From: Promethearchaeota archaeon
Lineage (GTDB): Archaea; Asgardarchaeota; Lokiarchaeia; Sigyniarchaeales; SOKP01
Assembly: GCA_030603385.1 (NCBI GenBank)
Contig: JAUVXW010000016.1
Coordinates: 1-64,000 of the forward strand
DNA length: 64,000 nucleotides
Direction of reading: 5' to 3'
The position numbers and the translations under genes are program-made. A model generated the notes under the pieces. That model was not told the DNA's origin. It did not search any database and worked only from the letters and a program-made list of their open reading frames with translations. Shown here one piece after another: positions 713 to 9,871 of the stretch. Each line of letters begins with the position of its first letter. Positions within the stretch are counted from its first letter, which is position 1.

Positions 713-2386
713 GTGAGAAATAACTTGGATAAACAAAGAATTCTAAAGGAAGCCCAAATAATAGCAAAAGAATTTTCTTTTTGGATGGTTTCGGGAAACA
801 TAGCCCATTTGTATGGTTATGTTTATGAAATCCCAGAAAAGAAATTTGAATTAGAAATAAAATTTGATGAAACTTTTCCAAATAATCCCCCTCAATTGTT
901 ATATCATGATGAAATTAAGGAGGTATTAGGAGAAATTCAATTAGAAAAACATAAACATTGGACACCAGAATCTAAAGTTGTTGACATTATCAAGGAATTG
1001 AAGTTAAAAATTCAAGAAGCAATTCAAATTCCTAAAACAATAACAGAAGAAGAATTGAGTTCCTTAAAGACTAGTGAAAAATTTGATGATTCTTTAGAAA
1101 CTGAAGAATATACTACACCAGATCTAAATGCTTACCCTCCAGATTATCAATCAGAAGATTACATAGTACCTTCAGATACTAATAACAATTTATTTTATAC
1201 TGAGCAAGCATCTGCAGATTTATCAGAAAATTATGATGTCAAATCTCTTGATGAACCTTTCTTTGATGAAACAAAACAGTTAAACTTAGAATTATCTACA
1301 GAATTAGGATTGATTCAACAAGAGTATGCATATGATCAAAAAGGTTCAAATGCTGCTGAAATAAATGTTTATATTACAATTACACTTACAAAGACTTTCA
1401 TTATTTCAATAGATTTTACACATTACCCTGAAAGACCTGTAATAACTTTTCCAGATGAGGTAAAAAAAATCTTACGGGATCCTTATAGAACTTTAAACAC
1501 TTTAAGAGAATGGAGTTCCAAAAAACCACCACATATTGTAGATGTCCTGCATGAATTAGAGAAAAAACTATTTTTCATAAAAGAAATTGAAATGCAATCA
1601 AAAAGGATTGCAGGAGAATATCAAAGCGAAAAAATTCCTGGAAGTTTGACAGCTCTGAAAGTCCACTTAATGACTTATGGTTTTAAGGAATATACCATGG
1701 TTATAGATTTAGAGTCTTATCCAAATCCTCCTGTTATAGATTTATCATCCGAATTGCAGCAAATTATCCAGATTTCGACTACAGAATTAGACGCTTATAA
1801 GAATTGGAAAGAGAACGAATCTGAACCAGTTGAAATAGTAAGAGAGATCTCTTGGTTAGTAGACAAGAATTCTAGAATAAATTTTGAGATTGATCTATTG
1901 AAAGATCATTATAAAAACATAAAATATGAACCCTCGACAGCGATTTTACATGTAGAAATGAAAGGAAAAATGAAAACTGAAGATCTTACTTTTGAATTTC
2001 AAATTAATTTACCGATTGATTATCCGATGAAAATGCCGGAAGTGAAAGTGGTAAACGAATTCGAACTCGAAGCTCATGAGAAGATAAAAAATGATTTACA
2101 TGCCTCATTTGATGACTTTTTTAAAGAATGGACACCCTTTAGTTATCTTGTTGATTTATTTAATTTAATTTCTAAGAAAATTTTCGAAGTATCAGTTGTA
2201 TCGTGTGTTATATGCCATAAAATCGAATGTCCGAGTTGTTCTAAAAAAATTGCTGGTGACAACAACTGTCATGCCGAATGCCCACATTGTGAAAAGCATT
2301 ATCATCTTCACTGTTGGCAGCAAACTGTTAAATCTTTTGGCAAATGTGGCTTTTGTCTTAAAACTCCTCCTCCTAGCATGATGTAA
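713..2386 (+). CDS. Tandem E2-like (UEV/RWD) x4 + C-terminal RING (C4HC3) protein, putative E3 ubiquitin ligase
   Basis: Four ~95-aa units each with [FY]PxxP-type turn (FPNNPP, YPERP, YPNPP, YPMKMP) followed by W + helix (HWTP, EWSS, NWKE, EWTP); C-terminal CPSC..CPHC-x4-H-x2-C..CGFC; no Cys before the Zn region. Confidence 0.75.
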   Translation: MRNNLDKQRILKEAQIIAKEFSFWMVSGNIAHLYGYVYEIPEKKFELEIKFDETFPNNPPQLLYHDEIKEVLGEIQLEKHKHWTPESKVVDIIKELKLKIQEAIQIPKTITEEELSSLKTSEKFDDSLETEEYTTPDLNAYPPDYQSEDYIVPSDTNNNLFYTEQASADLSENYDVKSLDEPFFDETKQLNLELSTELGLIQQEYAYDQKGSNAAEINVYITITLTKTFIISIDFTHYPERPVITFPDEVKKILRDPYRTLNTLREWSSKKPPHIVDVLHELEKKLFFIKEIEMQSKRIAGEYQSEKIPGSLTALKVHLMTYGFKEYTMVIDLESYPNPPVIDLSSELQQIIQISTTELDAYKNWKENESEPVEIVREISWLVDKNSRINFEIDLLKDHYKNIKYEPSTAILHVEMKGKMKTEDLTFEFQINLPIDYPMKMPEVKVVNEFELEAHEKIKNDLHASFDDFFKEWTPFSYLVDLFNLISKKIFEVSVVSCVICHKIECPSCSKKIAGDNNCHAECPHCEKHYHLHCWQQTVKSFGKCGFCLKTPPPSMM

Positions 2387-2459: not shown

Positions 2460-3665
2460 TTAAAGGTAATCATCAAGATTACCTAAAAACTTTTTTCCCG
2501 TCCAATAATAGGCTGGTGGCATCTTTAAGCCCCACTTTCTAGCATATCGGCCTATAGTAGTTCTGCCTATCTCGATACCGAATTTTTTTCGATGCAATTT
2601 TGCGATCTGAATCTTTGGCATTTTAAACAGAAGAATTTGAAGCTGTTCTCTTGAAAACATAAATTTTTCTCGGCGCATTGCTCTTGCTCTTTCTAGTTGC
2701 TCAACCCTTAATTTAGAATCTATTAATTTAATTCTTTTCCTTCTTAAGCTAAAATCATATTTATACAACATTTCATTAAATAAGTCAGCTGTTAAAAACA
2801 TCATATACTTAGTCTTTTCATCTCCATTTTTAGTTATATATTTCTGTTCACTTATTTTTGAATTAAGTCTAAATTTCTTTTTTATTTGATACAAAAATTT
2901 ATAACTGTTTGAATATATTCTCGATGATCCTTCTTCTCCATCACCATCAAAATATCCGAGAAGGAATGCCATATAAAGCTCACGAACTCGCTCATTATGA
3001 ATATCGCCTAAATCTGGCAAAGTTATAAATTCTGCCTTTTTGCCCTTGATTAATCCTTTATCCAAAAGATGCCCTATAAAACAGGAATCCTGAAAGCGGA
3101 TTAAAACAGTTGTAGTTTCAGAACTGTCATCTCTAATTCTGTTTTTATAAATTATATTTGACAGCTCGAATCCAATTGCCTTCGCAAATCTTAATACTAA
3201 GATTTCATCTTTAAATCCTATTTCTATTTGTATACCTCCCCTTTTTGTAATATGCCCTTCTGCGTAAACCCAGCCAAGCCAATATGCCTTTTCTTTTGAA
3301 TCAATTATATCAAAATAATCTAAGTTGAGATTAGGATTATAGTTAAGAGTAGATTTTGCAAACTTCTTTAGAGTGTTAGCTTGGCAATATCGTTTGAAAA
3401 TCCAATCAAAATTTGATTGCTGGTATTTGTGTTTAAAATAACTTCTTAAACTTGCCTTATATCCTTCTAACACATCCTCAGCAATTAAATAAATTTTTTC
3501 ATTCTTAGCATAACCTACCACTAAAGTCTTCTTACTTTCATAATGTCTCCCTCTCTGACCAGAAAGGAGTTCACTCATTATTTTATTAGTGACTATTATT
3601 CCAGGCATTAATTTCTGAGCTTCTTTCTTTAAATCATCTAAAAATTCAATAGTATTGTAGATCAT
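2460..3665 (-). CDS. Free-standing two-motif LAGLIDADG endonuclease-like protein with C-terminal HTH-like segment
   Basis: AYWLGWVYAEG and AFLLGYFDGDG motifs; C-terminal QIAKLH...IGRTTIGRYARKWG. Confidence 0.75.
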   Translation of the reverse strand: MIYNTIEFLDDLKKEAQKLMPGIIVTNKIMSELLSGQRGRHYESKKTLVVGYAKNEKIYLIAEDVLEGYKASLRSYFKHKYQQSNFDWIFKRYCQANTLKKFAKSTLNYNPNLNLDYFDIIDSKEKAYWLGWVYAEGHITKRGGIQIEIGFKDEILVLRFAKAIGFELSNIIYKNRIRDDSSETTTVLIRFQDSCFIGHLLDKGLIKGKKAEFITLPDLGDIHNERVRELYMAFLLGYFDGDGEEGSSRIYSNSYKFLYQIKKKFRLNSKISEQKYITKNGDEKTKYMMFLTADLFNEMLYKYDFSLRRKRIKLIDSKLRVEQLERARAMRREKFMFSREQLQILLFKMPKIQIAKLHRKKFGIEIGRTTIGRYARKWGLKMPPAYYWTGKKFLGNLDDYL

Positions 3666-7759: not shown

Positions 7760-9871
7760 ATGTCAAGTAAATCTAAATTAATAATTGGAATTGTTATGCT
7801 AGCACTTGGTGCTGGTTTAATACCAACTGGTTTTTTAACAAATGATTATCTAAGAGATGAAGTTTATGATGGAGTTCCTAGAGCGCTTCGAACAATCCGA
7901 GATGACGGCGTTGAGGGTTTACTGCCACAAATACCAGTTCTATCGACACCAGATGTTCTTAAGGGAATCTACGATAACGCTATAGAGGAATTAGAAAATT
8001 TTGTAGTCTTAAGGAGTACTACCGGTGTACTAAGAAGTATCTGGCAGGCTATGTTTGGATATTGGTTGTTACCTTACGACTGGGCTTATGTGATTGATGC
8101 TGCAGCATCGGCAAGAGTATTTAATCAAACAATCGCAGCAGCACCTGATGAGGGGACATTTTTTAATTCTAGTGCTTTTTGGGCTAATATAGGTGGTTCA
8201 TGGTTTCCTGGTATAGCAGCTTATACAGGATATGATTTGAATTTCACTTTTCATCCTCGAGAAAGACTTTTAAGAGTGGGTTCGGATGATGTTTATCTTC
8301 CAGGTATCCCAGCTTTCCTGCCTACTGTAGACATGGGATCAGGGTTTGGAAAATACCAAACAGTAACGTATGGTCTCAATTTCTCAGCTAATCCTGGAGA
8401 TGATTATGTACTAGATTACATAATGGGTGAGTACTACATCGATGGACTTCACGCAGAAGCTATTGCTAATTATACACAAGCGCTGGTATATTATTATGTT
8501 CCCTTTGCGGGCGGATGGGACGCAGCCTATCCTGGACTCAGTTATACAGAAGCAAAAGATCCTAGTATTGGATTTTATCAACAATGGGCAAATGCTACCT
8601 ATATCCAAGAGGGGATTGATCTTCATGAATTTTTCGGGTATAACTGGTGGGGTGAGTCAAGTGTTGGTCCTGATTTTGGTGAACATGGACAAAAAGGTCT
8701 TGAAGCAGGAGTTACTTTTTCATCAGAATCTCCTGAAACTGTAAGAGTACCCACTAATATTCCCTTAGCTACTGCTTCTTGGCTTTGGTGGAGTGGTGAT
8801 AGTAATTCTTTTACAAATGATGCTGGATTTCTAAAATGGATGAATGCTTCTGAGGCTACAAATTTGAAGACTTACTTCAGTCTTGATGATACTCAATATA
8901 ACCAGGTTCTAAATTGGTTAAACTTCTTTATGACTAATGTGACCCCCGTAGCGCTTGAATGGCAGGGAGCAGATGTCCGTGATATAGCACAAGGATTTTT
9001 CGAACAGCAGTGGGCAAATGGTACAATCCAAGGTAACGTCGAGCTTTCTGACGGATTTCTAAATGAGTTAAGCCCAACATTGGCGGGTGCTCCTTATTTC
9101 GAAATAGGGTTACCAGTTGAAAGTAATTTGACTCTTGCCCAAACGATGGCGCTTTGGAATTTAGGTAGCGATAAGACATTTTTCTTTAGCGATTCTTTTA
9201 ATTCAATTTGGTATCCTGCATTAAATAATGATAACGCAAGTCAAGCTTTCATAATGTCGGAATTTGGCCTTGATCCTGGTGAATTAGCAGCAGTTCTAGG
9301 CTGGTTAGGTGCTTTAATAGGTCTTGATCCAACGACGGGTCGAATTACTCAGATAATTGAAATTGAAAAAGGTGCTCCATTAGCAACGATTGTTCTCCTT
9401 GCGGTTTATGAGCAATGGGCGAATGGTACTATTAATGGAGAAGTTGCTATTCCCGACGGATTACTCAGCAGACGATCTCCTCCTATTTATGGCCCACCCT
9501 ACTTTGAACTCGGGTTAATGTACCCTATTGGTATAACCGTGGCACAAACTATGGCACTGTGGAATGAAGCTAGCGAATACTCCTTAGTTACTGGTAGTGG
9601 AATTAATAAATGGTATAGTGCAAAAGCTGGAAATACAATCTATGATGATCTAAAGACACAAAATGGATTAGGTGATATCCAAATGGGTGCTATTTTAGAA
9701 TGGTTGCCAGTATTTCGCGATGTAATCGCAAACAAACTCGGAGAGGATGATAAGAATTTACCTATGACCCCTTATGCATTAGGTGAAACATTAGTTCTCA
9801 GTTTAGGTATCGGCGGTGGAGCTTTAGCTGCTCTTGGTGTAGTACTGCTTATATTATCAAGAAGATCATAA
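7760..9871 (+). CDS. Surface glycoprotein with N- and C-terminal TM helices and three ~140-aa internal repeats
   Basis: Hydrophobic termini flanked by basic residues; repeats beginning QQWANAT / QQWANGT / EQWANGT; many N-x-S/T sequons. Confidence 0.7.
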   Translation: MSSKSKLIIGIVMLALGAGLIPTGFLTNDYLRDEVYDGVPRALRTIRDDGVEGLLPQIPVLSTPDVLKGIYDNAIEELENFVVLRSTTGVLRSIWQAMFGYWLLPYDWAYVIDAAASARVFNQTIAAAPDEGTFFNSSAFWANIGGSWFPGIAAYTGYDLNFTFHPRERLLRVGSDDVYLPGIPAFLPTVDMGSGFGKYQTVTYGLNFSANPGDDYVLDYIMGEYYIDGLHAEAIANYTQALVYYYVPFAGGWDAAYPGLSYTEAKDPSIGFYQQWANATYIQEGIDLHEFFGYNWWGESSVGPDFGEHGQKGLEAGVTFSSESPETVRVPTNIPLATASWLWWSGDSNSFTNDAGFLKWMNASEATNLKTYFSLDDTQYNQVLNWLNFFMTNVTPVALEWQGADVRDIAQGFFEQQWANGTIQGNVELSDGFLNELSPTLAGAPYFEIGLPVESNLTLAQTMALWNLGSDKTFFFSDSFNSIWYPALNNDNASQAFIMSEFGLDPGELAAVLGWLGALIGLDPTTGRITQIIEIEKGAPLATIVLLAVYEQWANGTINGEVAIPDGLLSRRSPPIYGPPYFELGLMYPIGITVAQTMALWNEASEYSLVTGSGINKWYSAKAGNTIYDDLKTQNGLGDIQMGAILEWLPVFRDVIANKLGEDDKNLPMTPYALGETLVLSLGIGGGALAALGVVLLILSRRS

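Follow-up and report, generated by a model that had tools for sequence, protein, structure and literature searches.

A Lokiarchaeia protein of four enzyme-dead E2 folds and a putative three-zinc RING finger, a probable ubiquitin ligase

Introduction

The archaeal E3 ligases of the reports consulted here are RING proteins, and the available parts of these reports describe no array of pseudo-E2 domains (PMC5654768, PMC9192718, 10.1101/2023.07.25.550441). Described archaeal UEVs, those of the Asgard UEV-Vps23 proteins included (PMC9192718), are single domains on Vps23 or Vps28, and a fusion of several pseudo-E2 units to a RING goes unmentioned in the same accessible text (PMC5654768, PMC9192718, 10.1101/2023.07.25.550441). 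Only a single Asgard RWD-like sequence was given by Tromer et al. 2019 (PMC6601020).

Here we analyse a gene on contig JAUVXW010000016.1 of a Promethearchaeota archaeon (GCA_030603385.1), of which positions 1 to 64,000 make up the window, and all coordinates refer to it. A sequence-only reading had proposed that the product carries four E2-like units followed by a RING, and that such an architecture had not been described in archaea. The latter agrees with our literature search, which covered journals outside subscription and found no published description of the family.

Results

The gene and its family

The open reading frame at 713-2386 on the plus strand is genuine and encodes 557 amino acids. 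Translation probably starts at the TTG at 725, since the conserved Met of the homologues falls there. The features are the following.

713..2386, plus strand: whole open reading frame, four pseudo-E2 units and a putative three-zinc RING, 557 aa, likely start TTG at 725
725..1024, plus strand: unit 1, a cysteine-less UBC fold with Gln at the catalytic position (Z 11.8, rmsd 2.2, 98 residues aligned to an E2)
1025..1282, plus strand: acidic disordered linker, 22 D/E against 5 K/R in 86 aa (AlphaFold model)
1103..1144, plus strand: conserved linear motif inside the linker, consensus EEYITPDLNAYPPD (homologue alignment)
1283..1573, plus strand: unit 2, pseudo-E2/RWD-like fold (AlphaFold model)
1574..1867, plus strand: unit 3, pseudo-E2/RWD-like fold, nearest to unit 2 with an HH score of 114 (model and profiles)
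1868..2200, plus strand: unit 4, RWD-like fold immediately before the RING (matches RWD domains at Z about 11, with rmsd 2.6-3.1 over 101-107 aligned residues)
2204..2359, plus strand: putative three-zinc RING (ligand conservation and alignment to RBX1)

Pfam recognises UQ_con in two stretches of the product (E 1.4e-9), as well as RWD and UBC_like. Searching the PDB with the single sequence or with close homologues gave weak E2 matches only, and a promoter scan was no better than chance. The family belongs to the Lokiarchaeia. Its full-length homologues number 322, and those that carry a name come from Asgard archaea, for the most part Promethearchaeota/Lokiarchaeota. The survey of Asgard genomes that had been suggested was run on a sample of 301 from the phylum, and strong matches are restricted to the protein's own class, where they occur in all six sampled families. 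In this class 65 of 101 genomes match the family, a few of these genomes through a single unit only.

Four pseudo-E2 units

The [FY]P turns claimed from the sequence lie exactly where they had been placed, at residues 55, 238, 336 and 437 (nt 875, 1424, 1718 and 2021). The motif-plus-Trp pattern occurs four times, and none of 20,000 shuffles had it three times or more. An AlphaFold model built from 96 sequences folds the protein into four alpha/beta units (residues 7-104, 192-286, 288-397 and 403-496), which bears out the proposed E2-like folds. Units 1 and 4 match E2, UEV and RWD structures with Z 10-12, the matches of unit 4 to UEV domains being at Z about 11. Units 2 and 3 are hardly covered by the structural matches and were assigned through their secondary structure, through Foldseek matches to tandem RWDs and through profile similarity to unit 1 (HH 85 and 69).

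That the units are catalytically dead also holds. The earliest Cys of the protein is C498, no unit has a Cys or an HPN, and Q76 aligns with the catalytic position of E2s in a column where Cys is not among the common residues of 96 homologues. Both the fold and the absence of Cys and HPN place the units in the inactive (UEV/RWD) part of the UBC/E2 superfamily. Cys305, present in some homologues, was considered as a hidden catalytic residue and rejected, because it belongs to strand 1 of unit 3, the present protein has Ser there, and distant members do not retain it.

Units 1-3 group together in profile comparisons, with HH scores of 68-114. Against profiles of Asgard E2s, units 2 and 3 score 23-32 and units 1 and 4 score 56-68. 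The simplest reading of these profile scores would be that units 1-3 are duplicates that arose within archaea. In the model, long shared helices connect units 2, 3 and 4, as in tandem RWDs, and CENP-O and Knl1 are among the Foldseek matches of the whole model.

Between units 1 and 2 the AlphaFold model is disordered (residues 107-189), and unit 1 is missing from the three-unit orthologues in other orders. The strict pattern of the linker motif is found in 110 of 127 four-unit proteins and in none of 15 distant homologues that have no domain of the unit-1 type. Unit 1 on its tether and the TPDL..YPP motif of the linker occur together, and we hypothesize that the pair was added in Lokiarchaeales and may serve regulation or extra binding.

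Domains like unit 2 also occur singly in other proteins, fused to JAB, longin-like or ABC-ATPase domains. One fusion with Prok-JAB is found in the same genome (L005:7780-8439, on G000:C6), and lone domains of this kind follow longin-like N-termini in P0210, P0219, P0223, P0224 and P0180.

The zinc finger

The C-terminus had been read as a C4HC3 RING. The RING type stands, but the finger is not only C4HC3, as the extra ligands would form a third zinc site in the register of RBX1/APC11. Ten Cys together with H531 and H533 are invariant among 96 homologues. From these we infer the sites C498/C501/H531/C534 and C523/C526/C545/C548, and a third, C506/C509/C519/H533, in RBX1 register; the assignment is drawn from alignment and co-variation and not from coordinates. 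A profile of 42 fingers searched against the PDB gave Pirh2 (7e-6), RBX1 (2e-5), RBX2 (5e-4), Ltn1 (8e-3), APC11 (1e-2) and PHD (2e-2); the best 45 matches are RING proteins only, and FANCL is not among the best 60. In the alignment to RBX1 (E 2e-5) all three zinc sites, with their twelve ligands, are in register. The inserted CxxC and the His/Cys at 533 co-vary among sequences that are kin and not independent, with both present in 173, neither in 21 and 2 discordant, and the joint gain or loss of the third-site ligands extends to the close homologue P0153. Family members with two zinc sites match Prok-RING_1, one of them above the cut-off. Given the alignment, the co-variation and these last matches, the finger is predicted to be a RING of C4HC3 type whose core is Prok-RING_1-like and whose third zinc site is of the kind seen in RBX1/APC11.

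The eight conserved ligands have RING spacing, and the central helix is there as well, as a long helix at 532-542 in the model. As to a possible cross-brace topology, the model is confident (pLDDT 87.9), and the Foldseek alignment to Ltn1 covers the finger. A likeness of FGKC to the FGEC of FANCL had also been pointed out, and this we reject, because orthologues read INKC, IKKC or IGKC.

The residues of the first E2-contact loop are kept, V499-I500 being invariant and equivalent to A43-I44 of RBX1, and few parts of the protein are as conserved as the RING face. At other docking positions residues are replaced: the position of RBX1 W87 holds an invariant Thr538, CPxC is CGFC (Pro to Gly546), and Leu occupies the linchpin position, which follows the last ligand. 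Distant family members retain CPxC.

The same three-zinc finger is found at the end of the unrelated proteins P0174, P0179, P0183, P0186, P0199 and P0205, among them membrane proteins with beta-helix-like ectodomains and one leucine-rich-repeat protein, and seems to be a mobile module. Other variants (P0147, L101:8001-10076, as well as P0144, P0167 and P0169) have an extra N-terminal RING, with the fourth pseudo-E2 unit present or absent.

Gene neighbourhood

The gene and its close relatives adjoin ileS and sugar-nucleotide genes, a neighbourhood that is uninformative on function, and within their own order they are not beside ubiquitin genes. The gene is separated from ileS by a reading frame at 2460-3665 on the minus strand for a 401-aa LAGLIDADG-like protein, which was probably inserted recently, since ileS is directly adjacent in two relatives (G201 and G228). 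Between ileS and the sugar-nucleotide cluster, at 7760-9871 on the plus strand, there is a gene of higher GC for a 703-aa membrane-anchored protein that has no Pfam match.

Other orders of the class, probably the Helarchaeales, carry two three-unit paralogues. In the tree the copy linked to E1 clusters with our protein, and the clade of the other paralogue, 'b', is separate at 96/95. The copy of our type comes after a nucleotidyltransferase and immediately upstream of E1 in three genomes (G240, G305 and G302), and in G303 it is immediately upstream of E1-E2-JAB; the orthologue in G301 has no linkage to ubiquitin genes. The 'b' paralogue is upstream of another RING gene in five loci. Distant homologues have a similar context. 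P0147 is the last gene of a Ubl-E1-E2-JAB operon and the sole RING-bearing gene there, P0163 is the first gene of a Ub-E1-E2-JAB-RING operon, and P0157 overlaps a JAB gene.

Two ubiquitin-like cascades

Two sets of ubiquitin-like genes have to be told apart. The A set is Ub-E1-E2-JAB-TM-RING and is found in the genome under study on contig C41. In the B set the E2 (E2B) retains both HPN and Cys, and the Cys is followed by an insert of 13 residues, which we take to match the loop of Cdc34/UBE2G in place and length; the best PDB matches of E2B are Ubc1/Ubc4. Genes of the B set are widespread in Lokiarchaeia (L081:5303-5821, L081:7151-8740, L071:7743-9752 and relatives), and E2B is found in 85 of 101 genomes of the class and in 25 of 28 of the same genus.

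The E1, E2 and JAB genes linked to the homologues are closest to B in each case. This is clear for G303 and for P0147, the E2 of whose operon is 53% identical to E2B against 33% to E2A, and narrow for P0163 (37% against 32%). A link to the C41 operon was considered and rejected, because the genes linked to homologues score better against the B set. E1B and E2B were not found in the assembly of the genome under study, which is 94% complete. Strict co-occurrence of the family with E2B is absent, many genomes of the class having E2B without a family match.

A complex model of the RING with the E2B of the same genus scored 0.41 against 0.00 for the best control, the runs agreeing in at least 82% of contacts and the partner having a pLDDT of at least 87. 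Of 80 solved pairs 58 reached that mark, and of 110 mismatched pairs 2 did; 7 of these solved pairs and both mismatches had scores of 0.60 or less, and a RING with an E2 is a textbook pair that can pass complex modelling by memorisation. Read in this way, the model lends weak support to docking of E2B on the RING.

Near E2B and JAB genes in G303 and G304 there is also a gene for a vWA (Ssl1-like) protein with a C-terminal RING-like finger (L007:5322-6515; L071:12184-13365), which resembles TFIIH p44 or Rpn10.

Discussion

We consider it likely that the protein is a single-chain RING E3 ligase of the second ('B') archaeal ubiquitin-like cascade. What is seen directly is the fold, the ligands and the linkage of the genes. 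From these the RING would dock charged E2B and promote transfer of the ubiquitin-like protein, and the rigid units 2-4 could be an arm that holds substrates or partners, like the RWD arrays in FANCL. An E3 had already been proposed in the sequence-only reading, and the proposal is strengthened by the adjacency of homologues to E1, E2 and JAB genes, next to the finger being of RING type. It is also supported by an Asgard (Helarchaeia) E1/E2/RING cascade that works in vitro (10.1101/2023.07.25.550441). Against it speak the partly replaced E2-docking residues (Thr538 for Trp, CGFC for CPxC, the linchpin Leu), the ileS and sugar-nucleotide neighbours that the gene has within its order, the unlinked orthologue in G301, the E1B and E2B that were not found in an assembly so nearly complete, and the patchiness of the family in the class in comparison with E2B.

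The loss of the canonical Trp, Pro and linchpin would be easier to understand if the protein served the B cascade without catalysis, as a scaffold or adaptor that binds ubiquitin in the manner of BRCC45/BABAM2 or a UEV, with pseudo-E2 units that bind ubiquitin-like proteins, the JAB protease or E1 and with a RING that is a degenerate module for interaction or dimerisation. Second in the Foldseek list is BRCC45 (E 2.6e-6), which itself scaffolds JAB-protease complexes. The Pfam BRE model matches 6 of 40 members, a JAB gene is the only partner of P0157, the same genome has a fusion of JAB with a unit-2-like domain, the P0163 operon has another RING gene, and Asgard UEVs bind ubiquitin (PMC9192718). 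We nevertheless find this fairly unlikely, as the first E2-contact loop is invariant, the distant members have CPxC, the RING face is so well conserved, and P0147 brings the only RING of its operon. That the finger is of another class altogether, PHD, C1 or Rubicon-homology-like, with the protein working outside ubiquitin transfer, is very improbable. Weak Pfam matches to RH_dom (8 of 42 members at E of 0.1 or below), C1_1 and PHD, and the unrelated membrane proteins that end in the same finger, would fit such an idea, but RING structures beat PHD by about three orders of magnitude, one two-zinc member is above the Prok-RING_1 cut-off, and the operons of homologues are those of ubiquitin-like systems.

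Orthology to FANCL or Ltn1/Listerin, in the sense that the eukaryotic RWD-RING ligases descend from this archaeal family and share with it a function in the repair of DNA or the quality control of ribosomes, is quite improbable. The likeness to FANCL, BRCC45 and Ltn1 that had been noticed did return as the top fold matches in Foldseek, with FANCL first for the whole protein (1.7e-6) and Ltn1 for unit 4 and the RING (8e-6). The profile of unit 4 and the RING spans the RWD-RING junction of yeast Ltn1 (1.5e-5) and FANCL (1.3e-4), FANCL is the best eukaryotic match in ESM features (0.90, 170 shared), and the two-zinc members share the ligand spacing of Ltn1. The TM-scores are however 0.15-0.36 with rmsd of 11-24 A, so the Foldseek matches reflect repeated folds in the same order, and units 1-3 resemble one another above anything else tested. 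FANCL_C matches no family finger scanned, FANCL_d1 matches 2 of 40 members at E of 2e-4 or more, and the HEAT repeats of Ltn1 are missing. With the profile of unit 4 and the RING, Ltn1 has no advantage in score over RBX1 and plain E2s, the E values at the Ltn1/FANCL junction (1e-5 to 1e-4) being no better than those for RBX1 alone, and the family is strongest in Lokiarchaeia rather than across Asgard. A broader idea, which we hold to be distinctly unlikely, is that eukaryotes took the RWD-RING module of FANCL and Ltn1, the three-zinc RBX1/APC11 RING of cullin and APC/C ligases, or both, from this archaeal family, which would also define a second archaeal cascade of E1B, E2B, JAB and E3, hitherto unrecognised and older than eukaryotes.

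If the reading as a B-cascade ligase is true, archaea would already have E3s that bear substrate adaptors, a three-zinc RING like that of RBX1, and tandem RWD arrays of the sort that serve in the kinetochore, FANCL and BRCC45. Since the gene context names a candidate cognate E1, E2 and JAB, the origin of the eukaryotic RWD-RING ligases becomes directly testable.

Comparison with known systems

FANCL, with its ELF, double RWD and C4HC3 RING (PDB 9a0j_L, 7kzp_L, 3k1l), is the best fold match to the whole protein, and the two have in common tandem cysteine-less UBC folds with a C4HC3-type RING directly C-terminal to them. Unlike FANCL, our protein has four units, the first of them detached by an 85-aa acidic linker, and a putative third zinc site; ligands 3 and 4 are spaced C-x2-C instead of C-x4-C, the central helix is without Trp, and units 1-3 look like duplicates made within the lineage. 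Judged by the C-x4-C spacing, the helix Trp and the FANCL_d1-d3 profiles, the family does not have the FANCL-specific finger. A closer look-alike of the FANCL finger is found in a protein of Jordarchaeia/Freyarchaeia (P0272, L049:4006-4884, also L047 and L048) with two pseudo-E2 units and a two-zinc RING, which has the C-x4-C spacing and the helix Trp and matches FANCL_C with E 0.0012. Its gene runs towards E1 and E2 genes in convergent orientation, with JAB-like, AAA ATPase and SMC-like genes nearby; a PDB search with the Jordarchaeia profile failed to return FANCL.

Ltn1/Listerin (PDB 8aaf_e, 9gy4_F) shares the direct joining of an RWD to a C4HC3 RING and the C-x2-C-x4-H-x2-C spacing, and is the best fold match to unit 4 and the RING, with a continuous profile alignment. 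Our protein differs in its three further pseudo-E2 units, in the putative third zinc site and in the Thr that stands for Trp. At 557 aa and with no helical repeats in the model, it also has nothing of the N-terminal domain and HEAT-repeat body of Ltn1 (about 1500 aa, 60S binding). The protein thus resembles FANCL and Ltn1 in layout and fails the tests specific to each of these families.

With RBX1, RBX2 and APC11 the protein has twelve ligands in register, among them those of the inserted CxxC and the HxHC motif and the additional Cys. The core is C4HC3 where theirs is RING-H2, and what it is fused to is pseudo-E2 units, where theirs has a cullin-binding strand. Pfam zf-rbx1 stays under its cut-off on the family fingers (best 23.9 against 31 bits), a search of the query genome for cullins found none, and the third zinc site may be convergent with that of RBX1/APC11. 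BRCC45/BABAM2 (BRE; PDB 6gvw_C) is likewise an array of dead E2 folds, second in Foldseek and with weak Pfam BRE matches, but it has no RING. With the archaeal cascades of E1, E2 and small RING proteins our protein would share the chemistry of the pathway, and the type of operon is the same (PMC5654768, 10.1101/2023.07.25.550441).
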